Shown here in pieces: positions 7,924 to 62,309 of a stretch of DNA of 64,000 bases; within the stretch, counting starts at the first letter, position 1; every line of letters starts with the position of its first letter. The DNA is taken from NCBI GenBank assembly GCA_965199105.1, contig CBDAQO010000002.1, positions 2,672,302 to 2,736,301 on the forward strand, read 5' to 3'. Position numbers and translations under genes: made by a program. Source of the stretch: Acetobacteraceae bacterium. Its GTDB lineage: Bacteria > Pseudomonadota > Alphaproteobacteria > Acetobacterales > Acetobacteraceae. The notes under the pieces were generated by a model that was not told the origin of the DNA, ran no database searches, and saw only the letters and a program-made list of their open reading frames with translations.

Positions 7924-7975
7924 GCAAGCGGTGATACCCGCCAGCGCTGGGTCCGGACAGGGGGTCGGGCTGGCG

Positions 7976-8680: not shown

Positions 8681-8884
8681 GGAGAGATGCTCGCCATGGT
8701 CGGATGCTACACCCAGCGCGCCGCCGCCGCCCAGGGGCGAGGGGGCAAGATTTTCGCCGCGACCGTCTGCCGCCCGGAGGCGATCGTGCCGCGCTGGCCA
8801 CAGTATGTGGAATGTTTCGTGCCCGGCGCTGCCGGCGGTTCTCACGCCAAGGGCCGCCTGGCATCCTGTCGCCTGGAGGATGCG

Positions 8885-11800
8885 ATGCGCCACTGCTGTG
8901 TGCTGGTCTGGCTGCTGGTGATCGCCGGGTCGATGCCGCACACGGCGTTCGCGGCCGGAATTGATTGCAGCCGGGCGCATTCGGCCACCGAAAAGGCGAT
9001 CTGTGCCAGTCCTTCGCTGCTGGCGCTCGACCAGTCGGTCGCTGCGGCCTACGCCAACCACCTGGCGCAGAGCGCCGCGCCAGCCGAGCAGTCCCGCCAG
9101 GAGCTGCTGGCGTGGCTGCGACACCGGGATGCGGCGTGCAACGTGCCGGCCGGGTCGCTGCAGCAATGCCTGACGCGGGAGATGACGGCGCGGTTGGCGG
9201 CACTGGCGCCGCCCATGCCAGCCATCGCGGCGCCGACGCCGACGCCAGCCATCGCGGCGCCGACGCCGACGCCCGCGCTACCAACGCCCGAGCCACTAGC
9301 GCCCGTGCGCGAGGTCGCGGTGCCCTCGGCCGCCAACGCGCCGCAAGCGGCCGCGACGCTGGACGCCAGCAGCCTGCCGGCAAGTGGTGAGCAGGCCACG
9401 CTGCTGCATGTCAGCAGCCCGGGCCGCTTCACCATCCAGGCCCACAGCCAGACGGGTGCGGCGATCCAATTGGTGGATATGCTGACCGGTCCGGGCGAGG
9501 TCCAGGGCAGCGCCGGCGGGCAGGATGGCCGCATCGATGCCCTGCTGGATGTGGGCACGTACAAGGTCCGCGTCAGCTCGCCCCCGCAGCCGGTCGCAGG
9601 GACGAGCGCGGTGACGCTTGCCGTCACCGCCTTCACCGACGCCGCGCCGCCGCAAGCGCTGCCGCCGCCGGGCCAAGTGGTAAGCGCCACCCTGAACGAT
9701 GGGCAGCAGCGCGCTTTTTGGCTGGCAATGCCGCAAGCGGGCGAGTTGCGGATCGAGGCGGCGGGGCGCTCGCTGGCCGACCTGCAGCTCTGGCGCGACG
9801 GCCGCACCCTGGTGAACGCCCGGGTCACCACCGCCGAGGTGACGCCGGTGCGGACCCACGCGCTGACCGACTTGCGGCTGGTGGCGCAGGTGGAGCGCGG
9901 CACCTACCTCGCAGTGGCCTATGGCGGCGCGGCGCGGCGCTGGGCGGACAACGACCCGGCGCAGCCATTCACCCTGCGCGCCGGAACGTCGGACGCGCTG
10001 GCGGAGGGCTGGGCGACCGGCACCATCGGGCCGTTCGGCAGCGAGCTGTTCACGCTTCCCGCCACCACCGAGCGCGTCCGCCTGGAGCTGCCGGCGGCGG
10101 CGGCGGCGGCGGCAAGCCTGCAGGCGGGTGATCGCGTTGCGGCGATCGAGCCCACCAGCAGGGAGCCGTCGACGACCCTGGTCGTGCCTGAGGGCAAGCC
10201 GCACGTGTTGGAGCTGAGCGGCGCGGCCGGGCAGGCGTACCGGCTGCAGGCGTTGGCCATTCCGGCGCAGCAGGCCATTTCGACCCCGGGCACCTATTGG
10301 GTGTCGGCCGTGACGGCGGGCGCCGGCGGGGAGGAGGTGCCGCCGAGCGTGGTGCTGGAACTGTCCGGGCGGGACGTCAAACCGGCGCGGGTGGTGGCGG
10401 CGTTCGAGCCGGTGCTGGCGGCGGGGGCGGGCTGGCGCGGCCGGTTCAACCTGCGTGGCCGGACCGTGATGCTGTTCCAGAACGCGGCCGGCGGCGAGGT
10501 CGCGGTGCGCAACACGGGCGGCCAGCTCCGGTCGGGCAACGGCGACGCCTACGACCTGCCGGCCGGCTACTCCGAGGTCGAGGTCGCGCCGGAAGCGGGC
10601 CGGCAGGTCCCGGTCGACCTGGTGGTGGGGCCGCCGGGGCTTGACCCGCCGCCGACGCCGCCCTTGCCGGCCAACCCGGTGTTGCCGCTCGGAGTGCAGA
10701 CGGTGGCGCCGGGTCAGCTCCTCACGCTGCTGCCGTTCCAGGCGCCCGGCGTCTCGGTCGGGCTGTCGGCGCGGCGCGTGCCGGTGGCGCTGGCGGCCGG
10801 CCCGCTGTCCGCGACCATGGTGGCGGGCAGCAGCCTGGCCGTTCCGGTCGCCGTGGCTCCTGGCGGCACGCTCGTGGTGCGGGAGGGCGGTAGCGAGCCG
10901 GTCGCCTACACCATGCAGGGCAACACGGTGACGATCGCCCCCGCCAACCGGGCGCGGACGGTGGTGCTGGCGTGGCGGCCGAACCCCTTGCCGCCGCCCG
11001 ACATCCCCGCGCCGCCGCCGGTGGCGCAAGGGGCGAGCTTGGCGGCCGGGCAGCCGGTGTTCTTTGACCTTGGCGAGCACGACCAGCGCGGGTTCGCCCT
11101 CACGGTGCCGGAAGGCGGCGTCTGGCGGGTGGAGACGCTGGGGCGCCTGCACACGACGGGGCTGCTGTCGACGGCGTTCATCCCGTCGCTGGGCCAAGCC
11201 GACGGGAATGGCGCCGGGCTGAACATGCTGCTGCAATCCGTGCTGCGGGCTGGGCGCTACCGGGTCACGGTGTCGGCGCTGGACTCGTCCGGCCATCTCG
11301 GGCTGTCGGCCAGCCCGGCGCCCCTGCTCGCCGGCGCGGCGCTGCTGCCCGGCGGGAGCGTGCGCGCCAGCTTGGCCGCGGGTACGGCGGCGACGTTCCC
11401 GATCGACATCCCCAAGGCGGCCGGCAGCGACATGGTGCGCTACCATTTCGACGTCGCCGCGCTGCAGGCACCATGGCTGGGGCGGATCGAGGACGCGGAA
11501 GGCTGGCCGCTCACCCGCACCGGCCCGCTCGACGGCACCGAGCTGGTGCTGGCCGCCGGGCACTACCGCATGGTGGTGGAGCCGGACGCGGTGAGCCGTC
11601 AGGTGGTGGCGCGGTTGCAGCCGATTGTGCCGGCCGTGGCGATCACCTTGCACGGGCCGCATCCGCTCGCCTTCAGCGCCACCGCCAACGCCGTGTGGCG
11701 CGAGCCCTCCGCCGCCGACCAGCCGCGCACGCCGGATCAATGGACGTTCCGCCTCGACGGCCCGGCGACGGTGACGATCGGGCTCGGCGCCGGGATGGTG

Positions 11801-14371: not shown

Positions 14372-17300
14372 GCATGGTCAAGGCCTTGAGGGCGGCTGGC
14401 GCCCTGCTGTGCGCGCTGATGGTGATGGCGCAGGCGCCGCTGGACCAGCTCAAGCGGGCGGATGGCGCCCATGTGCTGCCGGACCATTTCCTCCGCCGCT
14501 GGGACCCGGTGACCATCCTGCTCGACGGCGACGCCGGGCCAGCGCAGGGCGGCCCGGAGGACGCGCCCGAGCGCTTCGTGACGCTGGCGCCGGCCAAGCC
14601 CGGGTCCTGGCGCTGGATCGGCCGCCGAACCCTGCAGTTCCGCCCCACCGAGCCATGGGAGCCGTTGCGGCGCGAGGCGGTCACCGCGGCCGGCGCCACC
14701 ACCACGCTGATCCCGCTGCTGCCGGTGCCCACCGCCACCGGCCCTAGCGACGACCCCAACGGCACGGCCAACCTCGACACCATCGCGCTGAGCTTCGACC
14801 AGCCGGTGGACATGGCCGCACTCGCCCGCCTGCTCACCATCACCCTCACCCCGCAACCCGGCGTCACGGGTGTGGGCACGCAGACGCTGACGGCGGCCGA
14901 TTTCACCGTGCGCCCGGTGGAGCGCGCGAAACCCAGCGACCCGCAGACCTACCTCGTCACGCTGCGCACCCCGCTGCCGCAGGGGCGGATCGCCACGCTG
15001 CGCCTGCTACTGTCGGACGAGCCCGGGCTGGACGACCCGATCTTTTCCCTCCCGCTGCACTCGGCGTCGCCGTTCGCGGTGACCGACCGCTACTGCGGCG
15101 GCGGGTTCAACCACAGCCTGGTGGATGGCGTGGTGCAGTGCGACCCGGACCCGGACGAGACGGCGCAGAAGCGCGCCATCGTGTTGCAGTTCTCCGCCCA
15201 GCCCGCGCCCGTCGACATTGTGCAGGGGCGTGACGCGCTGCGTTTCACCCCGCCGGTGGATGGGCTCGAGCTCACCACCGGTGACGACAACAGCTTGACC
15301 ATCACCGCGAGCTTTGCTGCCGACCAGGTCTATCACTTGTCGGTCGCCGCAGGGGCGTTGACGAATATCGGTGGGCGCCCGCTCGCCGTCGCCGTCGAAA
15401 GCGACTTCCGCTTCCAGCCCAGTGCCCCGGCGCTGGCGTGGGACACGCAGGACGGGATGGCGGAAGCGCTGGGGCCGCAGATGGTGCCGTTGCGCGGGCA
15501 TGGCTACGACCATGCCGACTTGCGGATCTACCCGATCGACCCGCTGTCGCGTGATTTCTGGCCGTTTCCGAGCGGGGCTGTCTCGACCAGCGACAGCCAG
15601 TCCCCGCCGCTGCCGGGCCGCGAGCCGCGCCGCTACGTGGAGCTGGCGCCGATCAGCGCGGACGCCGTGATGGCGCGCATCTACGCCCTCGGCTCCCCGG
15701 CGGTGAGCGACCTCTATACGCTGCCGATCCATCGCGGCGGCCTGGACGCGAAGTTCGGGCTCGACCTCGCCCCCAGCCTCGCCCGCATCGCCGGGCCGCG
15801 CATGCCGGGCACCTACCTGCTCGGGTTGCGCACCGTGGACGGGCAGACCCGGCAATGGGCGCGGCTGCAGGTGACGGATTTGGCGCTCTCGACGGTGGAG
15901 GCGCCGGGCCAGGTGCGTTTCGTGGTCACCTCGCTGGCCACGGCGCAACCGGTGGCGGGCGCGGAGGTGCGGCTGGAAGGCGTGCGCGACGGCCAGTTCG
16001 GCACGCTGGCGCAGGGGGTGACGGATGCGGCCGGCGGTTGGACGCTGGCCGGCCAGATCGCCACCGGGCGCGACGGCAAGGCGGCGTTGCGCCGATTGGT
16101 GGTGACAAAGGCGACCGACACGCTCGTGCTGGACCCGGCGCGTGGCCCGCAAGTCTACGCGCAGGGACTATGGAGCCCGCCCGACACGCCCTGGCTCAGC
16201 CGCCTCACGGCCAGCCGGGCCAGCACGCGCGAGCCGGCGCAAACGCTGTGCCACGTGTTCACCGAGCGGCCGATCTACCGCCCGGAGGAGCCGATCCTGA
16301 TCGCCGGGATGATCCGCCGCTACCAGCCCGGCAGCCTGGCCTTCGCCACCGGCAGCGGCGACGTGGTGGTGACCGCGCCGGACGACCAGGAATGGCGCCA
16401 GCCGGTCACCCTGGACGAGGTCGGCGGCTTCCACGTGCGCTTCGACCAGAAGACCACGGCGACCGGCGAGTACAAAATTGCCTACCAGCCGGCGCATGGC
16501 GAACCCTGCGGGGCCTTCACGGTGCAGAAGCAGGCGTACCGGCTGCCGACCTTCGAGGTGGTGCTGACCGCCCCCGCCCACGCCGCCCTGGACGCGCCAT
16601 TCGACGTCGACCTGTTGGCGCGGTTCTTCGCCGGCGGCACGCTCACCGACCGCCCGATCACCTGGCGGGTGACGCAGTTTCCGTTCGCCTGGACGCCGCC
16701 GGGTCGGGACGGCTTTCTGTTCTCGTCGGACAGCCGGTTTTCCGGCGACAGCAGCTTCCGCTCCACCCCCGTGCTCGGGCGGGACGCCACGACGGATGCC
16801 GGCGGTTCGGCGCAACTGACGCTGGACCCGACGATCGAGCCCACTGCGCAGCCGCGGCAATACGTGGTGGAGGCGACCGTGACGGGCGACGACGACCAGC
16901 AGGTGCGCGGCGTGCAGCGCATCACCGCGCTGCCGCCGTTCGTGCTGGGAGTGAAGGTGCCGCGCTACCTGCCGCAGCCTGGCGCCATCGAGCCCGAAAT
17001 CGTGGCGCTGGATGGCGACGGCCATGAGGTGACGGGCCTGGCGATGACCGCGAAGCTGGTGCACCGGCAGTGGAACTCGGTGCTGGAGGCGAGCGACTTC
17101 GCCCAGGGTGCCGCCAAATACCAGACCCAGGTGCTCGACCAGACAGTGGAGGAACGCCACGTCGTCAGCACGGCGGCGGCGCAGACGGTGCATTTCGGCG
17201 CAATGGAGGCCGGCGTCTACCTGGTGGAGCTGAGCGCAACCGACCGCGCCGGGCGCACCCAGACGGTCCGGGTGGACCTGTTCATGGCCGGCACCACGCC

Positions 17301-49522: not shown

Positions 49523-52171
49523 ATGGCCACCAAGAAGCTGCAAGCCTACCAGGCAAAGCGGGACTTTTCCCAGACCAAGGAGCCGAGCGGCGACGCTGCG
49601 GCCGGACCCGGCGAAGCGGGCGCCAAGCTGCGCTTCGTGGTGCAGAAGCACGATGCGACCCGGCTGCACTACGACCTTCGGCTTGAGCTGGATGGCGTGT
49701 TCAAGTCCTGGGCGGTGACGAAGGGGCCTTCGATCGACCCCAAGGACCGGCGATTGGCCGTGGAGGTCGAGGACCATCCGCTGGACTACGGCGACTTCGA
49801 AGGCACCATCCCCAAGGGCCAGTACGGCGGCGGGACGGTCCAGCTTTGGGACCGTGGCTACTGGTCGCCGGAGGGGATGACGGCTGAGGAAGGCCTCGCA
49901 AAGGGAGATTTGAAGTTCACCCTGGCGGGAAAGCATCTGCACGGAAGCTGGGTGCTGGTGCGGATCAAGAACTGGAGCGGCGGCAAGCGGGTCAACTGGC
50001 TGCTGATCAAGCACCGTGACGAGTTTGCCCAGGAGGGTGGTGCCGAGCAGTTGCTGGCCGAAGACCAATCGGTGGCGTCGGGGCGGGGGATGGAGGAGAT
50101 TGCGGCCGGGCAGGGGCGGTCCCCCGAGCCGTTCATGCAGGCTGGCGCGGCGGTGGCGAAGGATGCGGTTTGGGACTCCAACAAGGGCCTGGCGCCGGCC
50201 CTGCGCGCCTCTGGCGAGACGCACGTGAAGGTGCGCAAGCCGCCCGCCACCAAGCGGACGACCGCTGACCCGGCGAGCGCGATGCCCGAGTTCATCGAGC
50301 CGCAGCTTTGCCAGACTGTCGAGCGGCCGCCGGCGGAGGCGGGTTGGGTGCACGAGATCAAGCTCGACGGCTATCGCGTGCAGGCGCGGACGGGCGGCGG
50401 CAAGACGGTGTTGCGCACGCGCAGGGGGCTGGATTGGACCGCGAAGTTCTCCGCCATCGCGACCGCCTGCCAGGTGCTGCCGGACTGCATCGTCGACGGG
50501 GAGATCGTGGCGCTCGACGACAAAGGCGTGCCGGATTTCGCCGCGTTGCAGGCGGCGCTGTCGGAGGGGGATAGCGGCAACCTGGTGTTTTTCGTCTTCG
50601 ACGTGTTGTTCGTCGGGGCTGAGGATTTGCGCGAGCGGCCGCTGCACGAGCGCAAGTCGCGGTTGCAGGCGCTGCTCGCCGGGTTGGGGGAGCGATCCAA
50701 ACCGCGGCTGCGCTATGTCGACCATTTCGGCTCGGGTGGCGACGCGGTGTTGAAGTCGGCGTGCAAGCTATCGCTCGAGGGCATCGTCTCGAAGCGGTTG
50801 GACGCTGCCTATCAATCGGGGCGCAGCGTGAGTTGGAGCAAGGCGAAGTGTCGTGGCGGGCATGAGGTCGTGATCGGGGCGTGGACCGATACCGGGGGGC
50901 GGTTCCGCTCGTTGATGGTCGGGGTTCATCGTGGCAAGCACTTCGTGCATGTCGGCCGGGTTGGCACCGGCTTTGGCGGCAGCAAGGTTGCGGCGCTGGT
51001 GGAACAATTGAAAACGGTGGCGGCGGAGAAGAGCCCGTTCACAGGAGCGGGGGCACCACGGGCGGCGGCCAACATCCACTGGGTGCGGCCGGAGTTGGTG
51101 GCGGAGATCGAGTTTGCTGGCTGGACTGGGGCCGGCCTGGTGCGCCAAGCCGCGTTCAAGGGCCTGCGGGAGGATAAGCCGGCGGCCGAGGTGATCGCCG
51201 AGACGCCCGCCCCGGCGGAAACCAGCATGCCGCGCACGGTGGTGCCGCAGCGTAAGGCGCAAGGCGCGACCGGTGACGTGATGGGGGTGTCGATCTCGCG
51301 GCCGGACAAGGTGATGTGGCCCGACGGGGGCGACGGTGCTGCCGTGACCAAGCTTGATCTTGCGCGCTACTACGAAGCCGTTGGACCGTGGCTAATGCGG
51401 CATTTGAAGGGGCGGCCGTGCTCGATCATCCGGGCACCCGACGGGTTCGCGGGGGAGACGTTTTTCCAGCGCCATGCGATGGCCGGGTCGTCCAACCTGC
51501 TGGCGTTGGTGACGCCGCTGGGGGACCGCAAACCCTACATCGAAATCGACCGGGTCGAGGGGTTGGCGGCGGTGGCGCAAGTCGCCGCCTTGGAGCTGCA
51601 CCCGTGGAACTGTGACCCGTTCCATTACGATGTTCCGGGCCGGCTGGTGTTCGACCTTGATCCCGGGCCCGAGCTTGCGTTCACCCGCGTTATTGAGGCG
51701 GCCACGCAGCTCAAAGGACTGCTGACGGAGCTTGGCCTGGTGAGCTTTTGCAAGACGACGGGCGGTAAGGGCCTGCACGTCGTCACGCCATTGGCGCGGG
51801 CCAAGGGGAGCAATCCGAGTTGGGCCGAGGCCAAGGCGTTCGCGCGCGCCGTTTGCCAACGGCTGGCGGACGACGCGAAGGATCGTTTCGTGATGACGAT
51901 GGCGAAAAACCAGCGAACGGGGCGGATTTTCCTCGACTACCTGCGCAACGACCGGATGGCGACGGCGGTGGCGCCGTTGTCGCCGCGTGCGCGGGTGGGC
52001 GCGACCGTCTCCATGCCGCTGACGTGGTCGCAGGTCAAACCAGGGCTCGACCCTGGACACTATACCGTTCGCACCGTGCCGAAGCTGCTCAGCAAGACCA
52101 AGGCCTGGGCCGACTATTGCGAAGCGGAACGACCCCTGGCGGACGCGATGAAGCAATTAGGGCTTAGGTGA
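49523..52171 (+). CDS. ligD: Multidomain ATP-dependent DNA ligase LigD (phosphoesterase-ligase-polymerase order)
   Basis: PE domain ([10 protein letters not shown]..., [18 protein letters not shown]), ligase motif I EIKLDGYR, and a C-terminal primase-polymerase domain (...HPWNC..., ...FDLDPG..., [10 protein letters not shown]). Confidence 0.9.
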
Positions 52172-53208
52172 TGCCTTTCTTGCTGCCGATTGACACGGCA
52201 CCGATGGAAGCCAAGCTGGTCGACAAGCTGCCAACCAATGGAGGCTGGCAGTTCGAGCCGAAATGGGACGGGTTTCGCTGCCTGGTGTTCAAGGCTGGCG
52301 ATGAGGTGGATTTGCGCGCGAAATCGGGCAAGTCGTTATCGCGCTACTTTCCGGAGATGGTCGCGGCGATCCGCGGCGCGACGGCCGATGAGTTTGTGTT
52401 GGATGGCGAGCTGACCGTGCCGCTGGGAACCTCGCTCTCGTTTGCGGCGCTGCAGGATCGGGTGCACCCTGCGGAAAGCCGGATACGCAAACTGGCCGCT
52501 GAGACGCCGGCTCTCTTGTTCCTGTTTGACTGTCTGGCGACGGCGAAGACGGGGAGCTTAATCGGCGCCGAACTGGCGCAGCGCCGGGCTCATTTGGAGC
52601 GTGTCGCTGCGTCGATGGGGCAGGCGGATCGGATGCAGCTTTCACCCATTACGCTTCACGCGGCGGATGCCGAGGCTTGGCTTGATGAGCGAGGGGGCGC
52701 CCTGGATGGTGTCGTGGCCAAGCAGTCCAGCGCTCGCTACCAGCCCGGCGAGCGCGCGATGCTGAAAGTGAAGCGGCAGCGCAGCGCAGATTGCGTCGTT
52801 GGCGGCTACCGGTATGCCAAGGGCAGCCGAGAGGTTGGCTCATTGCTGTTGGGGTTGTTCAATGATCAGGGAACGCTGGATCATGTCGGCTTCACGTCTG
52901 CGATTGCACATGCCGAGCGTGCGGCGCTGACCAGAAGGCTGGAGCAGATAACGGAGCCGCCTGGCTTCACCGGGGATGCGCCTGGCGGACCGAGCCGCTG
53001 GAGCACTGATCGGTCAGCAGATTGGCAGCCGCTACGGACGGAGCTGGTGGTCGAAGTCAGCTACGACCAGGTGACAGACGGGCGGTTTCGGCATGGCACG
53101 ATGCTGCGGCGCTGGCGGCCGGACAAGGTGCCACGGCAGTGCACGCGGGAGCAACTCCATGCGGCCTCGGACAGCTTTGCTCGATTGAATGATCTTGTGG
53201 TCAAGTGA
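52168..53208 (+). CDS. Stand-alone ATP-dependent DNA ligase (LigC-like)
   Basis: Motif [10 protein letters not shown], plus ...ELDGELT..., ...LFLFDCL..., ...DGVVAK..., ...MLKVKR... The ATG overlaps the ligD stop (ATGA). Confidence 0.85.
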
Positions 53209-53818: not shown

Positions 53819-55066
53819 TTAGAGGCGAGGCGGGGTGCCGGTGTTGAGGGCTGCTTTGCGGGACGGAATGAACTCAGTCAGGTAACAGCCGAACGCTATA
53901 AGCGGGAGGGCCAGTCCGGTGGCGGCCGTCAACGACCAGCCTCCTGCCGCGTAAGTCCACCCGCCTAGCGCTGACCCGGCGGCTCCACCGCAGAAGAAGA
54001 AGGCCATGAATAGGCCGTTCAGGCGGCTGCGATATTCGGCGTCCAGGGAGAATATCGCCCGCTGGCTCAGCACAAGATGAGCTGTGACGCCGAAGTCGAG
54101 CATGATGGCCGCCACGACAAGGAGGGCCAGCCCGATCGGTGTTCCGGTTTCACCCAATCGGCACACCAGGAACGCGATGGCGACAATCCCCATGGACGCT
54201 GCCGTCGCGGGCCGGGTCCAGCCGGCATCAGCAGCACGACCTGCGAACGGCGCCGATATCGCGCCCGCAACGCCGGCCAAGGCAAACAAGGCGATACCAT
54301 TTTGGGACAGGTGGAAACGGCCGACGAGCAGCAGCGGAACGGCGGTCCAGAATAGGCTGAAGCTACCAAAGAGGAACGCGTGATAGAACCCCCGGCGGCG
54401 CAGCACGCTCGTTCGGCTCACAAGGTGCGCCATCGATAGGAGGAGACGGGAATAGCTGAGGCCCGGGACCGGGCGTCTGGTTGGCATCGCGACACCCAAC
54501 ATCGCCATCACGACGACCATGACGCAGGCAGAGGTGAAGAATACGAAGTGCCAGGATGACGCGTTGGCGATGACGCTCGCAATAGGCCGGGCCAGCATGA
54601 TGCCAAGCATCAAACCGCTCATGACGTTGCCCACGACACGCCCGCGCGATGCCTCCGGAGCCAAGTTGGCGGCATAGGGAACCAGCACTTGCACCGCCAC
54701 TGAGCCGAGACCGATCAGCAGGGCGGAGGCGAGGAATGGAACAGCGTGGGTGGCGAGGCCGGCGCTGATGACCGCCAAGGTGCCGAAGCCGATAATGGTG
54801 AGAACCAGCGCACGGTTTTCGACCAAGTCGCCCAGCGGAACCACGACAAGCAGCCCCAAGCCATAGCCAATCTGGGTCATGGTGACGATGACACCAGCCG
54901 CCCCTGGGGGTAAACCCAGCGAGGCACTGATTGGGCCTACGAGCGGCTGCGCGTAATACAGGTTTGCCACTATAAGGCCGCATGCCGCGGCCAGCATGAG
55001 GGTGAGCCAGGCGGGAAGCCCCGCCTCTTTAGTGAAGCCCGGTTTCTGATTAGACCGGCTTTCCAC
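53819..55066 (-). CDS. MFS transporter
   Basis: Twelve hydrophobic spans. The first ~57 codons of the track ORF are non-membrane Arg/Cys-rich, so the GTG at 55066 is proposed as the start. Confidence 0.7.
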   Translation of the reverse strand: MESRSNQKPGFTKEAGLPAWLTLMLAAACGLIVANLYYAQPLVGPISASLGLPPGAAGVIVTMTQIGYGLGLLVVVPLGDLVENRALVLTIIGFGTLAVISAGLATHAVPFLASALLIGLGSVAVQVLVPYAANLAPEASRGRVVGNVMSGLMLGIMLARPIASVIANASSWHFVFFTSACVMVVVMAMLGVAMPTRRPVPGLSYSRLLLSMAHLVSRTSVLRRRGFYHAFLFGSFSLFWTAVPLLLVGRFHLSQNGIALFALAGVAGAISAPFAGRAADAGWTRPATAASMGIVAIAFLVCRLGETGTPIGLALLVVAAIMLDFGVTAHLVLSQRAIFSLDAEYRSRLNGLFMAFFFCGGAAGSALGGWTYAAGGWSLTAATGLALPLIAFGCYLTEFIPSRKAALNTGTPPRL

Positions 55067-55185
55067 CTTGGCTTCAGCCGCACTTGCTTTGTTCGTCAAA
55101 CCAGGTCCACGCCCATCGGTAACCACTCCACTGCTGGCCCGACATGGTGTCGCGTCAGGTGGACAACAACCAACGCGCGGCGTAT

Positions 55186-55704
55186 CTACCCCGAAGTGGA
55201 GTCTTGCGGACCAGGTGGCAGTGCATCGTCCGGCCACATCATTGGCGGCATGTGCAATTGGTTGCGGAGTAGATTGATGTTGCTTCGCGCGCTGCGGAGT
55301 TCATGGCGCAGAGCGCGCGCGCGTCGCCACCAAAGCACGGAGTTGCCGTCGCGCGGGGACGCGAACGGCACCAGCGCCACCGTCAACAAAGCAACCACCG
55401 ACGTCGCGTTCTTGACGGTCGCATCCAGCCAGTAAGCTGGCCAAAATAGCGTCCAAATCGTCAGGTCGTGGCTGAAGCCGCAAAGAAGAATGAAGGAGCC
55501 GAACAGCATCAAAACCCAAGCCGGCATGGTCAGTCGGCGACGGCGCGCCTCTACCAGAATAATGATCGGCAGCAGTTTGAACGCGATGGAAATGCCGGCA
55601 TCGCCGAGCACTGTCCAGGTTATCAAATCTGGGTCCCAGTGGAGGCACAGACCTCGTGGTGCCAAGTCGGTGCCGAACAAGAAGTGAGTTGCAGAGCTTA
55701 TCAT
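55186..55704 (-). CDS. Stand-alone ETR1-type (ethylene-binding-domain-like) three-helix membrane module with a short C-terminal coiled coil and no output domain
   Basis: CLHWDPDLITWTVLGDAGISIAFKLLPIIILV...WVLMLFGSFILLCGFSHDLTIWTLF...VKNATSVVALLTVALVP aligns helix by helix with the plant ETR1 N-terminus (SDFFIAIAYFSIP / [24 protein letters not shown] / AKVLTAVVSCATALMLV). This includes the Asp of helix 1 and the Cys-x3-His of helix 2. Confidence 0.65.
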   Translation of the reverse strand: MISSATHFLFGTDLAPRGLCLHWDPDLITWTVLGDAGISIAFKLLPIIILVEARRRRLTMPAWVLMLFGSFILLCGFSHDLTIWTLFWPAYWLDATVKNATSVVALLTVALVPFASPRDGNSVLWWRRARALRHELRSARSNINLLRNQLHMPPMMWPDDALPPGPQDSTSG

Positions 55705-56222
55705 GGGTCTACCACGAGACTGACTGGCCGGCGGAGATCATAGTCGTGGATGGTCGCGCCCTCGGCATCTTGGACCTGAACGTGGCGCTCGAGGTGGCAC
55801 TGGCCCGTAACGTCGCTCGGGATGTGGACCGCAAGACTGGCCCAACCTGCCTTCAGTTTGTCTGACGTGAGCTGTGCGTCCTCAAACTGCACCTCACGGT
55901 CTTGGCACCATAGTTCGGTTTCGACCATCATCGTTGTGCCGGGGCGAATGTCCGGGTGCATTTGCCACACGACGGTCTCACCGTTGGTAAAGTGGGAGCG
56001 GGGCTCGTCCGCCACCCAACAATCGCCGACCAGTTTGCCCAGAAAAGGTCCGCGGCTGCCAAACGATGCTTGCTCGGGGGATTTTTGCGGCGTCAGACGA
56101 TTGTGAATGCCATTGAAGGCAGCGGCATACCCAATCGCGAGGGCCCCGGCGACGAAGAGCATGCGCCTTTGAAGTTTAGTGAACACCTTATCTCTTAATT
56201 GCGGTAACGAAGTAGGCCGCAC
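55701..56222 (-). CDS. Hypothetical membrane-anchored protein
   Basis: 173 aa with one N-terminal TM (MLFVAGALAIGYAAAF) and a four-Cys soluble domain. Its stop overlaps the start of the downstream gene (ATGA). No family recognised. Confidence 0.5.
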   Translation of the reverse strand: MRPTSLPQLRDKVFTKLQRRMLFVAGALAIGYAAAFNGIHNRLTPQKSPEQASFGSRGPFLGKLVGDCWVADEPRSHFTNGETVVWQMHPDIRPGTTMMVETELWCQDREVQFEDAQLTSDKLKAGWASLAVHIPSDVTGQCHLERHVQVQDAEGATIHDYDLRRPVSLVVDP

Positions 56223-56643
56223 TTGCCATCGCCGCGCCGATTATCGTCGTCAGCAGCCATTTACCAACCTCGACAAAGGCGGTCTTGAACACCAGTGCCT
56301 TCAAGGCTTCGAGGGCAGCTTTGGACTGCTCGTCTAGCGCGCGTTTAAATTCATCGGCCTGAACCTTGCGGGCCGACGCCTCAGCCTCCAACGCGACGTT
56401 GAATGACGCCTGCTGTGATTTCATCATCTCTGCGAGCGACTCGGTCTGCTTGCGCTGCTCAGAAGCCAGCCGTGACAAGGACATCTCCATGTCACCATCT
56501 TTCTCTCGCAGGCTTCGGACCGAGGCAGTCAGTTCCTCGAGATTATGGAGAATGAGATGGTTCGACGTCTCCAAGCTCTCCAGCCTTCGGGCACTCGCGC
56601 TGCTCGCTCGCAGGTCGGCCGGCTGCACAGCAGTCGCCATCAA
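56188..56643 (-). CDS. Hypothetical coiled-coil protein with a C-terminal TM anchor
   Basis: 151 aa. Heptad-rich Glu/Lys/Ala/Leu centre and a C-terminal hydrophobic helix (WLLTTIIGAAMASAAYFVTAI). Overlaps the next gene by 35 nt. Confidence 0.5.
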   Translation of the reverse strand: MMATAVQPADLRASSASARRLESLETSNHLILHNLEELTASVRSLREKDGDMEMSLSRLASEQRKQTESLAEMMKSQQASFNVALEAEASARKVQADEFKRALDEQSKAALEALKALVFKTAFVEVGKWLLTTIIGAAMASAAYFVTAIKR

Positions 56644-56677: not shown

Positions 56678-57163
56678 TTAGGGGACGTTGGTCACCGTCG
56701 TGTTGACTTGGCTCACTGTCGGCGCCGTGATGGTGGCAGTACTGGTGGGGTCGGACGGTGACTGAGCGGCCAGTGCCACCACTGGAAGCAGCACAGACCT
56801 TGCGATCGCACGCCCAGCCTCAGTCCCGATGTTGAGGACGATGGTGTAAATCGTGCCGGGTTGTCCGCTCGATAACCATAGGATCGCCCGCGCGCCATCA
56901 GCCGTCATGGAGTTCAGAGTGAGGTCACCCGGGTTAGCCGGATTGATCGTGACATCGAGCGTGGCAATCGCGTCTCCGTCATTGCCGATCAGCGCCGGGG
57001 CGATGTCGAACTGGTAATCGAGAACATCGCCAGGGTCTTTTATGGGCCACGACAAAGGCGGAGGAATGATTGCCGCGGCGCCGCGCGGGACCGGGACAAA
57101 GGCGTCCAAGACGACGACGCGCGCGGCACTCGGCCGCCAGACGTGGGAGGCAGTGCTTGCCAT
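56678..57163 (-). CDS. Phage tail-fibre-associated beta-sandwich protein (KDPxDxLDY family, annotated in databases as fibre-tail adaptor/accessory)
   Basis: ...WPIKDPGDVLDYQFDI...GDAIATLDVTI...GQPGTIYTIVLNIGTEAGRAIARSVLLPV matches the family pattern as I recall it. Located just downstream of the tail fibre. Confidence 0.45.
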   Translation of the reverse strand: MASTASHVWRPSAARVVVLDAFVPVPRGAAAIIPPPLSWPIKDPGDVLDYQFDIAPALIGNDGDAIATLDVTINPANPGDLTLNSMTADGARAILWLSSGQPGTIYTIVLNIGTEAGRAIARSVLLPVVALAAQSPSDPTSTATITAPTVSQVNTTVTNVP

Positions 57164-57233
57164 GGATTTGTCCTGCTACAGCGTGTTGCGCATGAGGTCG
57201 GAGGAGCGCAGGAAGTCGGTCAGTTTGGAATAT

Positions 57234-58478
57234 CTAGAACTCGAGTATGAGGAAGCCTTGGGCACCGGGCCCACCGTTACCCTGAACGCCATAGCACCCG
57301 CCGCCGCCGGAGCCCGGAGCTTCCGCAATCTGCTGGATTGCACTGCTGGCTGCCGCTGCCCGTCCGCCACCACCAAAGAACGAGGCGCCCCCATTGCCCG
57401 CAAAGGTAAAGGTGCCACCATTGCCATCGGAGCCGTAGCCACCGTAAATATTGATAAGACCGCCAGTACCAACGCCAGGAGAGCCGCCAAATGCGAAGGT
57501 GGCCCCACTCGCACCGCCCGAGCCGCCCGATGCACTCATCGCGGTGCCGAAGCTGGTTGTGCCACCAGCCCCAGCCACGGCACCACCGGCGATGGCGGCC
57601 GTCCCTCCTTGCCCGATGATAATAGGAACAATCTGACCCGGCGTGACAGCCACGTTGCCCTCACTGTAGCCGCCTGCGCCGCCGCCGCCACCGCCAAACG
57701 TGGACGTTCCAGAGCCACCGCCACCGCCGCCACCGCATAGGCGTACCCGAAGTAGCGAGACACCGTTTGGAACCTGAAAGTTCGTCGAGCTGATGAACGT
57801 CTCCAGCCGAGAAAACCCTGGCGTCAAGCTGTTCAGCTTGAAGTTGATGAACGGCGCTCCTGGTAGCGTCACGATGCTTTGCGGGCCGATCTGCGACTGG
57901 CCGTAATTGACGGTGATGACGTAGAGGCCCACCCAGCCACTATCGATCGGAGGCGTCACCTGCGTGCCTGCGTTGCTCGGCGCAGATGGTTTGAGCTGGA
58001 ACTGGACCCGTTGCGTCCGTTGCGTATTCTGGCCGACCCCGTCATTCGCCGGCCCATAGAATGGCTGCGATGGGTTGGCGGCATTGTAGTAGGGCAGAAC
58101 GATGGGGTTGCTATCGCTTTCCGCCAAAGTCGCTTGAATGAGGTAGTTGATCGACTGGCCAGACGTCGTCGGCGGGGTCAGTGTGAAACTCGTGGCGCTG
58201 GTATTGATACCCATTTTGACCAGCGGATCGGTCGTATCCTGACCCAATGATCCGTAGGCCATCGCGTCAACCACCGTCAGGTTCGTTATGCTTCCGGGGC
58301 CAATTGAGACGGTGAGGCTCGCTGGCGCTGTGGGCAGACAGGCGAGGCCATCAACCAACGTTGACGAACCCAGCGCTGCCTGGGCAAGATAGCCAATCGC
58401 GATCATAGCGTCGCGTTGAGCAGAGAGAAGGTCCGTGTCGAGCGGGATACTACCCGGATAAACAATCTGGCGATCCAC
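57234..58478 (-). CDS. Phage tail fibre protein with a glycine-rich C-terminal domain
   Basis: The N-terminus MDRQIVYPGSIPLDTDLLSAQRDAMIAIGYLAQAALG is a conserved prophage tail-fibre head. The C-terminal ~170 aa are Gly-rich (CGGGGGGGSG...GGGGGAGGY...GGSGG...). Confidence 0.8.
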   Translation of the reverse strand: MDRQIVYPGSIPLDTDLLSAQRDAMIAIGYLAQAALGSSTLVDGLACLPTAPASLTVSIGPGSITNLTVVDAMAYGSLGQDTTDPLVKMGINTSATSFTLTPPTTSGQSINYLIQATLAESDSNPIVLPYYNAANPSQPFYGPANDGVGQNTQRTQRVQFQLKPSAPSNAGTQVTPPIDSGWVGLYVITVNYGQSQIGPQSIVTLPGAPFINFKLNSLTPGFSRLETFISSTNFQVPNGVSLLRVRLCGGGGGGGSGTSTFGGGGGGAGGYSEGNVAVTPGQIVPIIIGQGGTAAIAGGAVAGAGGTTSFGTAMSASGGSGGASGATFAFGGSPGVGTGGLINIYGGYGSDGNGGTFTFAGNGGASFFGGGGRAAAASSAIQQIAEAPGSGGGGCYGVQGNGGPGAQGFLILEF

Positions 58479-58490
58479 GTCGGGTCATCC

Positions 58491-59132
58491 TTAGTTCGTG
58501 ATGTTGATCCAGGCGATTGAAGCCGTCGGCATGACGCTTGCCACGGTGCTGGCTATGTCCTGGTCGGTCAGTTGCCCAGGGATAAGCGACAGATTGGCCC
58601 GCACCATCGGACCGCCCGTGTTGTATCCGGCAACCACCGAAATACCTGCGCTCAATGGGCGTCGTGCTTGGATGAATACCTGGTAGGGCAAATTTAGGTT
58701 GCCCCAGGCCCCCGCCACTCCATAGCCGAGCACCGGGGAGCCATACGCGCCAGTATCGGCCACTCGCGCCGGCTCAAAAATCAATGGCATGAACCCGGTG
58801 ACAGTTTCAAGCGCGGCGGCAATCGCTGGCCTGGTCGCATGATCTCGAACCAATGCGTTCTGCAGGCGCGCGCGATAGGCAGCGTCGGGTTCAAGCGTCA
58901 ACCGTGGTAGGCGGTTGCCGAAGAAATCACCACTGGCGCCATCGAGGAAGTCTCCTGTAACCGTCGAAATTCGGGTCTGCTGCCCAACACTTAGGAGCAA
59001 CTCATGAAGGCTCGACCAAGCACTTCCCAGGCCTGTAAGCAACGCATCCAGCACCGGCGTATCATCGGGAAACCAACGTGTCGGAAGCGTGGACTTAAGC
59101 CTGGAGAGGATGTCGTCGATACTACCAATCAT
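58491..59132 (-). CDS. Baseplate/tail-fibre attachment protein (position of Mu gp48 / P2 gpI)
   Basis: 213 aa, immediately downstream of the Baseplate_J gene and upstream of the fibre. Weak resemblance to the gp48/gpI family. Confidence 0.5.
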   Translation of the reverse strand: MIGSIDDILSRLKSTLPTRWFPDDTPVLDALLTGLGSAWSSLHELLLSVGQQTRISTVTGDFLDGASGDFFGNRLPRLTLEPDAAYRARLQNALVRDHATRPAIAAALETVTGFMPLIFEPARVADTGAYGSPVLGYGVAGAWGNLNLPYQVFIQARRPLSAGISVVAGYNTGGPMVRANLSLIPGQLTDQDIASTVASVMPTASIAWINITN

Positions 59133-59133
59133 G

Positions 59134-60252
59134 TTAGCTCACCGTGACCGTGCCGGGCCGAATGATCCCATTGGCCGGTATCATGAGGTCACCATTCCCG
59201 TTGATGGTGACCGCAGTGACATTGGTGATCGCAGGCGAAGCAGCGTAACTGATCGCGCTCACTCGCGAGACAGGAAGCGGCAGTCCAATCGTTAGGCTCG
59301 CTACGTAAGCCTGCACAGCGGCAGTAACCGCTGTTTGCACAGTGGCCAGATCCGAGCCAGTAAACACCAGTGATATGGTGATGGTTGCGACGATGAGCTG
59401 CGGCGGCTGAACCGCAAATTGCGTCCCAACAGGTCTCACGCTCTCCAGGGCATTCGCGACCGCGGTGATCAGGCTGCCCGGCGGCGCTCCCGACCCGTCA
59501 TCAACGATAATCGTCGAAAATCCAGGCCGAAACGCACCGGATGAATCCTGATTTTCCGCCAACGTGTAGTCCAGGCCTTGCTGTAAGGACTGGACGGTAT
59601 AAGCGACCGCCGCGGGGGTCGCCCTTGACCGGCTATCGATGAAGTTGGTGAAGCGGGCCCGCAGCGCTCCGTCCGGCTCAGCATCCATACCGCCAGCAGC
59701 GGCAACTGGGTTTGTTACCGCATCCACCCCGGGCATTGCTGTCGCGAGCAGGCTGACCGCTCCGGCCTGCACGTTGCCTGCTGAGCCGGCCACGGTGTTC
59801 GAAGCGGAAACTGAAATCGAGCTCACAGCCGCAGCGAGAGTATAGCTTGCGGTCGATGGAGAGAATGCCGGGTTGGTCGGATCTGCCACGACTGCGAAGG
59901 TTTGGGTGCCGTCCGCTGTCTTGGCTTGCGAGCCTACCGGGATGGAAGCAGTGAGTCCGACTGTGAGACGCGAAAAGGTGACAGTCGTGCTTGCCGCCTG
60001 CGCAGGCAGCCGTGTCATACCAAAGTCGGCAACCCAACTATCAAGGTCCGACCCGGTTGACGTGGACGCCCTCGTTTGGGCGAGTACTTGGACAATGAGC
60101 CATTGCACCCAGAGCGCTAGGGACGCGTTTGCTTCCAGTATGGCTCGAAGAACGCTGCCAACAGTGAGGTCGATAAAGGCGTTTGCGCTCCCTTGAACGC
60201 TGGCTGCCATGTTCTGCATGAGCGTGCTGAAGTTCTGAAGTGGAAGCTGCAT
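59134..60252 (-). CDS. Baseplate J-like protein (Mu gp47 / P2 gpJ)
   Basis: 372 aa. N-terminus MQLPLQNFSTLMQNMAASVQG...LTVGSVLRAILEANASLALWVQ... is typical of the Baseplate_J family. Confidence 0.8.
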   Translation of the reverse strand: MQLPLQNFSTLMQNMAASVQGSANAFIDLTVGSVLRAILEANASLALWVQWLIVQVLAQTRASTSTGSDLDSWVADFGMTRLPAQAASTTVTFSRLTVGLTASIPVGSQAKTADGTQTFAVVADPTNPAFSPSTASYTLAAAVSSISVSASNTVAGSAGNVQAGAVSLLATAMPGVDAVTNPVAAAGGMDAEPDGALRARFTNFIDSRSRATPAAVAYTVQSLQQGLDYTLAENQDSSGAFRPGFSTIIVDDGSGAPPGSLITAVANALESVRPVGTQFAVQPPQLIVATITISLVFTGSDLATVQTAVTAAVQAYVASLTIGLPLPVSRVSAISYAASPAITNVTAVTINGNGDLMIPANGIIRPGTVTVS

Positions 60253-60276
60253 GAACCCTCAACGTCGGCAATGGAG

Positions 60277-60639
60277 TTAAGCAAAAAAGGCGATTGTCTG
60301 GGACGTCCCGAGTGTGGCGTCCGCGTAGGTAACTTGGATGTAGAGGTCGCCGGCTTGGTCCGGTATAAGGTCGATGACAGGGGCCGGAGTTGAAGCGACG
60401 TTGGCCTCTTGCAGAACCTGTGTCCTAATCGCCGAGACAATCGCACTTGCCGCACCCGGTTGTCCTACAAAGCTCGCCAACCCCGCGCCATACTTGAGTG
60501 ACCACAAGTAATCGCCTGGCACCGTCAATAACCGGCGGAGCACCCGTTGTTGTGTCTCCGACGGACTATCTACGACGGCAACATCGCCAGTCGGTGACCA
60601 GGCGAGATCGCTTCCCCAAAAGTGAGCCAAGTCCCCCAT
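60277..60639 (-). CDS. Small baseplate protein (Mu gp46 / gpW-like)
   Basis: MGDLAHFWGSDLAWSPTGDVAVVDSPSETQQRVLRRLLTVPGDYLWSLKYGAG... Start taken at the internal Met. Position between the gpV-like and gpJ-like genes. Confidence 0.55.
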   Translation of the reverse strand: MGDLAHFWGSDLAWSPTGDVAVVDSPSETQQRVLRRLLTVPGDYLWSLKYGAGLASFVGQPGAASAIVSAIRTQVLQEANVASTPAPVIDLIPDQAGDLYIQVTYADATLGTSQTIAFFA

Positions 60640-60722
60640 ACCAACCGCCTTTAAATTGAAGAATTCTGACGCGAACCAGGAGCAGGGCGCAGGCGACCGA
60701 ACGAACGGCTTCAAGCGCACTA

Positions 60723-61226
60723 TCAATCGGGCTCGTTCGTGATGCCGGTCTGTGGCGGGTGGGAATGTGCATTGTAATGAACCCGCAGCGAGCTAAGCGA
60801 TCCGTGACTGTCATAGACGTTACCAACGACATGCAGATCGCCATTGATGCGAATGGTCCCGTCATTTTGCAGCTTGAGAGAGCTGCCACTTTGGTGAACT
60901 AACCAAAGCTCTCCGACCGGAGTCGCAGGCGCAATCGCTTGGGTGGACCAAGTCCCACCGACTATGATGCCCTGTTCAGCATCGCCCTCATGAGGCAAGA
61001 CAAGCACCTGAGTGCCGATAACCGGTGGACAAACCAAGCCCCAGCCATTGCCAACCCAAGGTGTCAACAGCGGCAGCCAGCCGGTGAGGACGCCCTCTGG
61101 TTGAAGGGTCACCCGAGCCGTCGCCGTGCTTGGGTCGACTGAGGTGACAACTCCGAAACGCGCTGCCCCACTTGCCTGGTCTTGGTTGGCCGAGTGTGCC
61201 TTAACAGCATTCAAGAAACCGTCCAT
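60723..61226 (-). CDS. Baseplate assembly protein V / spike (Mu gp45-like)
   Basis: ...ARFGVVTSVDPSTATARVTLQPEGVLTGWLPLLTPWVGNGWG... and ...HYNAHSHP... match the Phage_base_V pattern. Confidence 0.8.
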   Translation of the reverse strand: MDGFLNAVKAHSANQDQASGAARFGVVTSVDPSTATARVTLQPEGVLTGWLPLLTPWVGNGWGLVCPPVIGTQVLVLPHEGDAEQGIIVGGTWSTQAIAPATPVGELWLVHQSGSSLKLQNDGTIRINGDLHVVGNVYDSHGSLSSLRVHYNAHSHPPQTGITNEPD

Positions 61227-61238
61227 GATCGCCCCCAG

Positions 61239-62309
61239 TCAAGAGGTTGGAACACCAGCCACAGCGGCAGCTTGGTTGGCTGCAGCGACGTTTTTGAGCC
61301 GAATGGTCTGAACGAAGCCTTGGTCGAGACCGAAATGGCGGCTGAGTTCCGACACATAGTAAACCTGGTCGAAGTCAGTCCCCGTGCCGCTGAGGGTAAC
61401 TTGGGAGCGCGGCGATAACGCAAGCTCTCCCGGCAATTCCGCCGACACAATCCTCTCATGGCTTGACAGGTCCGCCAGTATCCGCTGCGCCAATTGCAAC
61501 GCGTCGTTTGGCGCTAGATTTGGGCGAACGACCACAATCTTGCGCGGCACCGAGCCCGATTGCCGGGCGGCTGAACTCGTCGCGGTCTGCGTAAATGCCT
61601 TCTGCTGCCTTGTGTTCCATGATTTGACCGTAACCTGGATGTCACGGGCAAGCGTTAGCGCATGGTCCAAACTAAGCGAGATGCATTGCTCCGGTGTAAG
61701 GCTGAAGGCCTGTGTATTTGCCGGCAATGGGCCGAAGTTCAGTGTAGTCCCACTTACAAACACCTCGAAGCCCTCCCGAGCTGCGAGGAAGGTCAGAAGG
61801 TCCCACTCCGTCGTCGCACGGGCGAATTGCCCGAGCGTGATGCGATCATGCTCGTTTGCATAATAGCGGCCTGCTAGCGCTGTGGTGGCGGTCACGTTGG
61901 CAGTTAGCTCGTGCCGAGCTGCCAGTGTCTCAGCGATCTCACTTGCGGTCTGGTTGCTAAAAGTTTCCTGGGTCTTCGCGTCTAGCAGCCGGCCTGCTAA
62001 ATCGCGGCCCTCTAGGCTGGTTGTGCCATTGATCACGTCCATGGCAAGACTATCAACCTCGCCTTGGATCAAGCTTATCGGTGGTCCGTTCACGCCAACC
62101 TGTATATCGAGCACGAGGCCCGGTTGAATTAGCTGCGATGCCGTGACGCTATCCATCGCCAGACGAAGCCGGAACCGCGCCGCTCCGAAATGAGCATTGC
62201 TCGTTATCTCCGCGTCCATAATCCCGGGAAGGGGTGAGCCGCCCAACAAGACAGCAATCGTTGGGTTACGTTGATTGCTGTACGACAATCCCTCCTCCTG
62301 CGTTGGCAT
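61239..62309 (-). CDS. Tail/baseplate hub protein (late control D / Mu gp44-like)
   Basis: 356 aa. Called from its position between the gpX-like and gpV-like genes and weak family resemblance. The start may lie downstream of 62309, because the track ORF overlaps the LysM gene by 44 nt. Confidence 0.55.
   Translation of the reverse strand: MPTQEEGLSYSNQRNPTIAVLLGGSPLPGIMDAEITSNAHFGAARFRLRLAMDSVTASQLIQPGLVLDIQVGVNGPPISLIQGEVDSLAMDVINGTTSLEGRDLAGRLLDAKTQETFSNQTASEIAETLAARHELTANVTATTALAGRYYANEHDRITLGQFARATTEWDLLTFLAAREGFEVFVSGTTLNFGPLPANTQAFSLTPEQCISLSLDHALTLARDIQVTVKSWNTRQQKAFTQTATSSAARQSGSVPRKIVVVRPNLAPNDALQLAQRILADLSSHERIVSAELPGELALSPRSQVTLSGTGTDFDQVYYVSELSRHFGLDQGFVQTIRLKNVAAANQAAAVAGVPTS

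Follow-up and report, generated by a model that had tools for sequence, protein, structure and literature searches.

The 64,000-nucleotide stretch of Acetobacteraceae bacterium DNA analysed here (the window; contig CBDAQO010000002.1) carries, at 55186-55704, a gene for a membrane domain of the ethylene-receptor type that stands alone, beside the tail genes of a phage-derived element. The question raised by this locus is what such a domain does when no signaling output is attached to it. An earlier sequence-only reading had left open a truncated sensor-kinase gene or a genuine mini-protein, and had implied a role in binding copper or ethylene. Our analysis gives about an even chance that the protein is the multi-span inner-membrane part of a phage lysis-associated module, being either holin-like or holin-controlling. 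Judged from sequence comparison and gene context, the domain has most likely been exapted for a lysis membrane protein and does not serve ethylene sensing.

The window protein and its three-helix domain

The features of the gene are as follows.

55186..55704, minus strand: ETR1_N-family gene, third in a three-gene module; 172 amino acids from an ATG start (open reading frame, Pfam match and purifying selection)
55363..55626, minus strand: ETR1_N domain, residues 27-114, with three transmembrane helices (Pfam limits, hydropathy and residue mapping)
55600-55602, 55579-55581, 55480-55482 and 55468-55470, minus strand: codons for D35, F42 (equivalent to ETR1 Tyr32), C75 and H79, respectively
55189..55353, minus strand: C-terminal tail, residues 118-172, a basic heptad-like helix WWRRARALRHELRSARSNINLLRNQL followed by a Pro-rich motif MPPMMWPDDALPPGP
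55701..55704, minus strand: ATGA, in which the stop of the middle gene of the module overlaps the ETR1_N start; the plus strand reads tcat

In a Pfam search, residues 27-114 of the window protein aligned with profile positions 2-89 of 97 of family PF25487 (ETR1_N, 'Ethylene receptor 1-like, N-terminal domain') and scored 70.5 bits (E=1.4e-19; gathering cut-off 27). Scores of relatives ranged from 44 to 83 bits. BLASTP against the N-terminus of ETR1 gave E=5e-11, and hydropathy located three transmembrane helices at approximately residues 31-54, 57-83 and 97-115. The alignment of three hydrophobic helices with ETR1 proposed in the sequence-only reading is thus upheld, not being spurious at the profile level, and on this evidence the window protein belongs to the ETR1_N domain family. 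The third helix is followed, as had been noted, by a 55-residue hydrophilic tail and then a stop, with no output domain or second Pfam domain after ETR1_N. The window protein had no NCBIfam or PHROG match, and a PDB sequence search with a profile of the phage-borne clade to which it belongs found no match. An AlphaFold2 model of the ETR1_N protein (7-sequence alignment) had a predicted local distance difference test (pLDDT) score of 53 and was not used.

Within the close clade, conservation of the protein is highest in the tail. Columns W125-L146 and M152-P166 are invariant among 7 relatives, and W125, W126, L132, H134, I143, L146, P154, W157 and L162 stay unchanged even in relatives of only 36% identity. 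The tail begins RRARALRHELRSAR..., is charged and hydrophilic, and is predicted to lie in the cytoplasm. One tail motif, LRHELRSARSNIN (residues 132-144, 55273-55311, including the invariant His134), resembles the HisKA H-box SHELRTPLNxI. The best local alignment by hhalign pairs it with mSHElRTPLn~Il, a match that is not significant (P=0.02, probability 2%); the motif may be left over from an ancestral kinase, as part of its first DHp helix, or the likeness may reflect chance.

The ATGA overlap with the upstream open reading frame, described previously, is present, and is a predicted translational coupling of the ETR1_N gene to the middle gene. Overlap or abutment of start and stop at this position is kept in loci L001, L002, L004, L008, L014, L017 and L020 (L-numbers denote loci of relatives, and P-numbers denote ETR1_N protein representatives or clusters).

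A conserved three-gene membrane module

The ETR1_N gene is always the last of three genes, which encode a tail-anchored coiled-coil protein, a periplasmic immunoglobulin-like (Ig-like) protein and the ETR1_N protein, in that order. The two partner genes of the window are the following.

56188..56640, minus strand: first gene, 150 amino acids from the ATG at 56640; charged, coiled-coil-like N-terminal region and one C-terminal transmembrane helix
55701..56186, minus strand: middle gene, 161 amino acids from the ATG at 56186 (the open reading frame list gives a GTG at 56222)

The same trio, in the same order, ends the tail cluster in every relative, and it persists where the fibre is swapped for a beta-helix tailspike and where the chromosomal neighbour differs (recJ in L001, AhpC-LigD in L002 and L004). 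In L008, at 37% identity, the ETR1_N gene is preceded by a middle-gene homologue (E=5e-10) and a gene for a 93-amino-acid tail-anchored protein. Loci L017-L019 carry a tail-less, 132-amino-acid form of the ETR1_N protein, and there the trio lies directly after the terminase large subunit. By its positions after fibre, beta-helix tailspike and terminase large subunit, the module is a unit that appears to move between phage contexts. The reading of the gene as a mini-protein had missed this membership in a conserved membrane module.

The first gene's product is 85-91% identical in relatives. A GGAG Shine-Dalgarno sequence before its ATG is conserved while the spacer upstream varies from 34 to approximately 370 nucleotides, which indicates a module boundary upstream of the first gene. 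The tail-anchored topology of this product occurs in all contexts, and pairwise comparison of the products from different contexts shows no similarity among them. The first trio protein of L020 gave a sub-threshold match to GTA_holin_3TM (E=0.015).

The middle protein combines an N-terminal Ala/Gly-rich hydrophobic helix, serving as signal or anchor, with a beta-rich domain containing two invariant Cys residues. Its AlphaFold2 model had a mean pLDDT of 78.5 (85-95 in the domain) and consisted of the N-terminal helix and an Ig-like beta-sandwich. Fold matches were generic only (RhoGDI and carbohydrate-binding modules), with template-modelling scores below 0.5, and on this model the protein is a binding domain and not a recognisable enzyme. 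We had considered a muralytic enzyme of the signal-anchor-release type for this protein, and dropped it on the basis of these generic beta-sandwich matches. Identity of the middle protein among relatives is 47-57%, and its family comprises six clusters in the whole database, all adjoining ETR1_N genes. No counterpart of the trio families was found in PHROGs, INPHARED or IMG/VR.

A comparable layout of three genes was observed in Komagataeibacter phage phiKX1 (L015), at 15378-16656 after the tail fibre. These genes encode a 149-amino-acid coiled-coil protein with a C-terminal transmembrane helix, a 163-amino-acid protein with a GLWQMEP motif (phrog_3108, unknown function) and a 112-amino-acid membrane protein. 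Comparison by hhalign of the three trio families with the phiKX1 post-fibre genes revealed no homology (probability <1%), and by these comparisons the likeness is positional and topological only. The three phiKX1 genes are possibly an unannotated lysis cassette.

Endolysin genes adjoin the module in divergent phages

In three divergent contexts, the gene next to ETR1_N, abutting or overlapping it, encodes an endolysin. These endolysin genes lie immediately downstream of the module in other phages, a linkage overlooked in the sequence-only reading. In L007, which shares the tail lineage of the window (fibre 70% identical), a gene for an ETR1_N protein of 185 amino acids overlaps by 4 nucleotides a PF00959 Phage_lysozyme gene (63.8 bits; PHROG endolysin). 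In L014, the ETR1_N gene is separated by 3 nucleotides from a GH108 gene (PF05838, 80.7 bits); a middle-gene fragment precedes the ETR1_N gene, the GTG start of which (269) overlaps the preceding stop. On the 73-kb phage contig L020, which encodes RecT, YqaJ and MT-A70, the full trio comes after genes for large tail proteins, and the ETR1_N gene there overlaps, through a TAATG, the gene for a 407-amino-acid GH108+PG_binding_3 endolysin.

Two unrelated muralytic families (PF00959 and GH108) thus adjoin the module in three backgrounds, which makes chance adjacency unlikely; the GC content of these backgrounds ranges from 55 to 71%. The endolysins of L007 and L014 have no N-terminal hydrophobic segment, so that they should depend on a holin; the only membrane proteins encoded beside them are those of the trio. 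The adjacency points to host lysis and not to signaling.

The L020 endolysin gene (10381-11604) has an additional feature, an N-terminal extension of approximately 230 amino acids with hydrophobic segments and a match to phrog_1544 (unknown function, E=1e-16). As judged from these segments, the enzyme would be a membrane-associated endolysin or a membrane-protein fusion.

A candidate lysis module

These data suggest a mechanism in which phages captured the ETR1_N fold and its output domain was lost, with the window lineage keeping a short cytoplasmic coiled-coil tail that ends in a proline-rich motif. The protein would be made late, its translation coupled to that of the tail operon, and would insert with its N-terminus out and its C-terminus in through the three transmembrane helices, as a dimer or oligomer. 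This topology is predicted because the loop between the first and second helices is Arg-rich, following the positive-inside rule. The protein is probably dimeric, as ETR1_N domains are, and its N-terminal Cys is conserved. The tail-anchored protein on the cytoplasmic face, the Ig-like protein on the periplasmic face and the ETR1_N protein would together control permeabilisation of the inner membrane, by which a cytoplasmic endolysin would gain access to the cell wall. The cytoplasmic tail probably contacts the tail-anchored protein, and the Ig-like protein would work on the periplasmic side. Hole formation or its regulation, the choice of holin among the three proteins and the partner of the tail are all points that we infer.

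The position of the ETR1_N gene as the last of a late tail operon supports a lysis function. The window protein also has the general features of a holin, being small, phage-encoded, provided with at least one transmembrane helix and charged and hydrophilic at its C-terminus. Several observations weigh against the lysis function. The window protein matched no Pfam holin family at E<=1 and no PHROG holin, and at 172 amino acids it is large for a holin. No endolysin or lysozyme was found by tblastn or Pfam within ±10 kb in the window and its closest relatives, the module in the window ending at host genes. The gene downstream of ETR1_N in L017 is not an endolysin, and the L020 endolysin has a membrane region of its own. 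Most clade members, the window protein among them, retain the Cys and His of the metal site, so that this site may matter. The case for lysis, being built on gene neighbourhoods, would be one of guilt by association.

An alternative that we consider unlikely, but deserving of attention, is that the trio is a 'moron' which the prophage expresses, serving superinfection exclusion or lysogenic conversion through an inner-membrane/periplasmic complex of its three proteins that would block DNA entry by related phages or alter the envelope, to the benefit of the lysogen. A module of this kind could be expected where the trio is found, as the last gene block of the element, beside host DNA and downstream of host-recognition genes, with a variable upstream boundary and, in the window lineage, no adjacent endolysin. 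The module in L017 is followed by a clear hairpin and T-run, and the periplasmic Ig-like domain evolves fast, its identity among relatives being far below that of the first gene's product. An exclusion gene would not be expected to share start/stop overlaps, in three contexts, with endolysin genes from two unrelated families. The genes are also tightly packed, promoter-like sites showed no excess (3 found compared to 1.2±1.2 by chance), and PADLOC defence models gave noise-level matches only.

The copper/ethylene site is relaxed in the phage-borne group

Ethylene binding has been reported to need seven residues (PMC6682694). The equivalences obtained by BLASTP, window residue first, are D35 to D25, F42 to Y32, L45 to I35, P46 to P36, I72 to I62, C75 to C65 and H79 to H69. 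The seven residues described by Wang et al. 2006 are reportedly Asp25, Tyr32, Ile35, Pro36, Ile62, Cys65 and His69. The window protein is identical to ETR1 at 5 of the 7, with Phe in place of Tyr32 and Leu in place of Ile35. Equivalents of the Cu(I) ligands Cys65 and His69, of Asp25 and of its partner Lys91 (K98 of the window protein) are all present, as is the conserved N-terminal Cys. The earlier alignment was accurate for the Cys, His, Asp and Pro, including the Cys-x3-His pair (C75/H79), and had overlooked the Phe and the Leu.

To compare conservation of the site, residues were counted in 146 non-clade (sensor-type) representatives among the best 150 of 5684 matches and in 10 clade clusters.

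ETR1 Tyr32: Tyr in 146/146 non-clade; in the clade, Phe in 6/10 (including the window protein) and Cys in 1/10
ETR1 Cys65: Cys in 145/146 non-clade; in the clade, lost in 2/10
ETR1 His69: His in 146/146 non-clade; in the clade, lost in 3/10
ETR1 Asp25: Asp in 137 and Asn in 9 non-clade; in the clade, His in 1/10

The position of Ile35 is Ile in 141/146 of the sensor-type representatives. Substitution of the His by Tyr occurs in P0002 and P0003, which are 83-85% identical to the window protein; P0009 has the changes C to V and H to K, and P0012 has D to H and C to S. By these counts the metal/ligand site is relaxed only in the phage-borne group, the sensor-type relatives being essentially invariant. 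Because site residues are lost in some of its members, the conserved function of the group would not depend on the copper site, and because the site varies while the tail is invariant, selection appears to keep the membrane scaffold and cytoplasmic tail and not the Cu/ethylene site. The Cu/ethylene-binding role that had been implied for the gene is therefore doubtful: the ligands are present in the window protein, and across the phage-borne group the Tyr, Cys, His and Asp vary. Without an output domain, with 5 of the 7 binding residues and with a site unconserved in its clade, the window protein would by its sequence fall outside the definition of an ethylene receptor.

These data bear on the possibility, which we rate as rather improbable, that the protein is a working mini-receptor for Cu(I)/ethylene or another small ligand, signaling through its tail to a partner such as the tail-anchored coiled-coil protein, a host kinase or a regulator; such a role could be combined with one in the timing of lysis. 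Retention of the equivalents of Asp25, Pro36, Ile62, Cys65, His69, Lys91 and the N-terminal Cys would fit a receptor, as would a Pfam score as high as those of sensor-type members and the weak H-box resemblance of the tail. Isolated ETR1_N domains are able to bind ethylene, as found for SynEtr1[1-130] in yeast (PMC6682694). The Tyr32 that is universal in the sensor-type representatives and reportedly required for binding (PMC6682694) is nevertheless Phe in the window protein, close relatives have exchanged the His for Tyr, more distant module members lack the Cys and/or His, or the Asp, and the H-box resemblance falls short of significance.

A combination of the two functions, in which Cu(I)-dependent binding of ethylene, or of another small unsaturated or gaseous ligand, at the ETR1_N site would gate the lysis protein and so time lysis by a prophage whose hosts are acetic-acid bacteria associated with plants or fruit, we hold to be improbable. 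Such a protein would be without precedent, both as a virus-encoded ethylene-receptor homologue that has a physiological output and as a ligand-gated holin.

A selected stand-alone protein family

A potential concern with the analysis of a short gene of this kind is whether it is simply the broken end of a longer one. A word-indexed search of 5.8 billion proteins found just seven close relatives, all of 145-172 amino acids, and an exhaustive search with HMMER, covering 1.84 billion representatives, found 5684 ETR1_N proteins. Only 3 of the 5684 reached E<=1e-30, each matching over the full length including the tail. Nearly all other ETR1_N matches were sensors of 350-1700 amino acids that matched residues ~1-115 alone; among the 146 non-clade representatives, 114 were at least 350 amino acids long and matched in this manner, in agreement with the statement of the sequence-only reading that homologues of the domain are usually N-terminal modules of larger sensors. 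The stand-alone architecture, of 126-185 amino acids, is common to approximately 10-12 protein clusters, and it occurs in several phage contexts.

For the ETR1_N gene, the proportion of nonsynonymous differences (pN) was 0.08-0.19 compared to 0.7-0.8 for synonymous differences (pS). Against relatives at 82-87% protein identity, pS was 0.70-0.79 (saturated) and pN was 0.08-0.11, giving a ratio of nonsynonymous to synonymous substitution rates (dN/dS) of no more than 0.06. The ETR1_N gene is under strong purifying selection. The dN/dS value and the architecture shared by the clusters bear out the proposal of a genuine mini-protein. The 64-kb window contains nothing resembling the post-domain parts of the 114 sensor-type relatives, no second ETR1_N domain, and no kinase, GGDEF or other output fragment; the orphan kinase fragment suggested previously as a possible complement to the gene was thus sought over the window and not found. 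We accordingly reject as next to impossible a pseudogene remnant of a recently truncated sensor kinase lying beside the prophage by chance, which would suit a family made up overwhelmingly of the N-termini of long sensors, because the gene retains constraint at saturated synonymous sites, its stop position and tail are conserved, its length is kept in distant relatives, each of the ~10 clade clusters has the short architecture, as have the tail-less forms of L017 and L020, the gene is always within the same trio, and the window holds no 3' fragment.

IMG/VR scans with two clade alignments gave no match, nor did two JGI metagenome scans or a tblastn search of INPHARED with the window ETR1_N protein, the first trio protein, and the ETR1_N and middle proteins of L020. 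Look-ups of sequencing runs gave coded runs, mostly of DNA type, and no RNA evidence that could be used. Representatives P0038, P0089 and P0140 are further ETR1_N proteins of 120-159 amino acids without an output domain; P0038 lies on a 40-kb contig, and two of these three have Asn for Asp25.

Relationship to receptors and holins

The window protein shares a homologous three-helix membrane domain with the ethylene receptors Arabidopsis ETR1, Synechocystis SynEtr1/slr1212 and Azospirillum AzoEtr1, and, as in these receptors, it has a conserved N-terminal periplasmic Cys and a helix that runs from the third transmembrane segment into the cytoplasm. It differs from them in having a 55-amino-acid tail in place of GAF, kinase, GGDEF or MCP domains, in the changes at Tyr32 and Ile35 and the unconserved metal site among its phage-borne relatives, and in being encoded in a phage late operon within a three-gene membrane module instead of a signaling locus.

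Among lysis proteins, the resemblance is to class I holins of the lambda S105 type, which are likewise small, with three transmembrane segments, a predicted N-out/C-in topology and a basic hydrophilic C-terminal tail; the adjoining endolysin gene in three relatives adds to this likeness. Unlike class I holins, the ETR1_N proteins are longer (126-185 amino acids), have no dual-start motif and no sequence similarity to Pfam or PHROG holin families, always occur together with two other proteins of the membrane or periplasm, and in the window adjoin no endolysin. On present evidence, drawn from sequence features, the ETR1_N protein would be most like a class I holin in its working, yet it belongs to no described holin family. 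A positional analogue is found in Ralstonia phage Raharianne, in which gp53, with three transmembrane segments, overlaps the endolysin gp54 shortly downstream of the tail-fibre genes.

The likeness to multi-component holins (T4 T/RI/RIII, Bacillus PBSX XhlA/XhlB and GTA_holin_3TM PF11351) is one of logic and topology only. The periplasmic partner in the trio, with its N-terminal anchor, has an RI-like topology, while the other partner faces the cytoplasm. The first trio protein, with a coiled coil and a C-terminal transmembrane helix, has an XhlA-like topology (XhlA match E=0.99), and the GTA_holin_3TM match of its L020 counterpart is below the Pfam cut-off. Full-text literature searches found no paper linking ETR1-type ethylene-binding domains to phages or holins.

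In plants, cyanobacteria and proteobacteria, ETR1_N has been known as the sensor end of large signaling proteins, whereas in the module it is autonomous, under selection and carried by phages. Should the lysis role prove correct, the module would provide a new family of holins or holin regulators, along with two uncharacterised partner families, and would clearly exemplify the exaptation of a sensory membrane domain for membrane permeabilisation. Should the ligand site still be active, the protein would be the smallest natural ethylene-binding-domain protein for biochemical and structural work, and a possible tie between a plant hormone and prophage behaviour.

Genomic setting of the module

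The module ends a phage tail operon, identified by Pfam and PHROG matches, which lies upstream of it and is composed as follows.

56678..62309, minus strand: upstream phage tail operon
56678-57163, minus strand: Gp77-domain protein
57234-58478, minus strand: Gly-rich tail fibre (Gly_rich_2)
58491-59132, minus strand: UCP028438-type baseplate protein
59134-60252, minus strand: Baseplate_J
60277-60726, minus strand: wedge-like protein
60723-61226, minus strand: Phage_base_V
61239-62309, minus strand: GPD-like hub

The presence of Phage_base_V, Baseplate_J, the Gly_rich_2 fibre and the Gp77 domain upstream agrees with the previous suggestion that the gene is carried and co-transcribed with phage tail genes. 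The element runs past the end of the window, and its hosts are uncultured Acetobacteraceae. Two closed chromosomes from metagenome-assembled genomes carry it, OZ240665.1 (around 2,452,564-2,473,079) and OZ255629.1 (around 3,509,364-3,529,855). By Baseplate_J, the nearest sequenced phages are the Ralstonia Raharianne group (45.5% identity for Raharianne) and Komagataeibacter phiKX1/phiKX2 (42%). An exact look-up of three window tail proteins found no record. Relatives with the same baseplate have the Gly-rich fibre replaced or supplemented by beta-helix (pectate-lyase-like) tailspikes of approximately 810-970 amino acids, located at 6487-8928 in L001 and at 6485-8923 and 12397-15315 in L007, which carries two. 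From the gene content, this exchange looks like swapping of receptor-binding modules within the prophage lineage.

Downstream, the module is followed by host genes for a major facilitator superfamily (MFS) transporter, AhpC and LigD. The MFS open reading frame (53819-55237, minus strand, 472 amino acids) overlaps the 3' end of the ETR1_N gene; its true start is probably near 55000-55060, because similarity to the L009 homologue begins only at residue 74. The window and L009 (74% identity) share an MFS gene between ETR1_N and AhpC. L002, L004 and L012 lack this gene, and there AhpC follows approximately 20 nucleotides after the ETR1_N gene. By this comparison, the presence or absence of the MFS gene is an insertion or deletion right at the element/host junction. 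The plus-strand region 49523-53208 holds an 882-amino-acid multidomain open reading frame, placed as are the LigD genes called in L004 and L005 and assigned to LigD by this position, followed directly by a separate 346-amino-acid ATP-dependent DNA ligase (DNA_ligase_A_M + DNA_ligase_A_C). Two ATP-dependent ligase genes, the 882-amino-acid one by position, thus lie in tandem beside the prophage junction.

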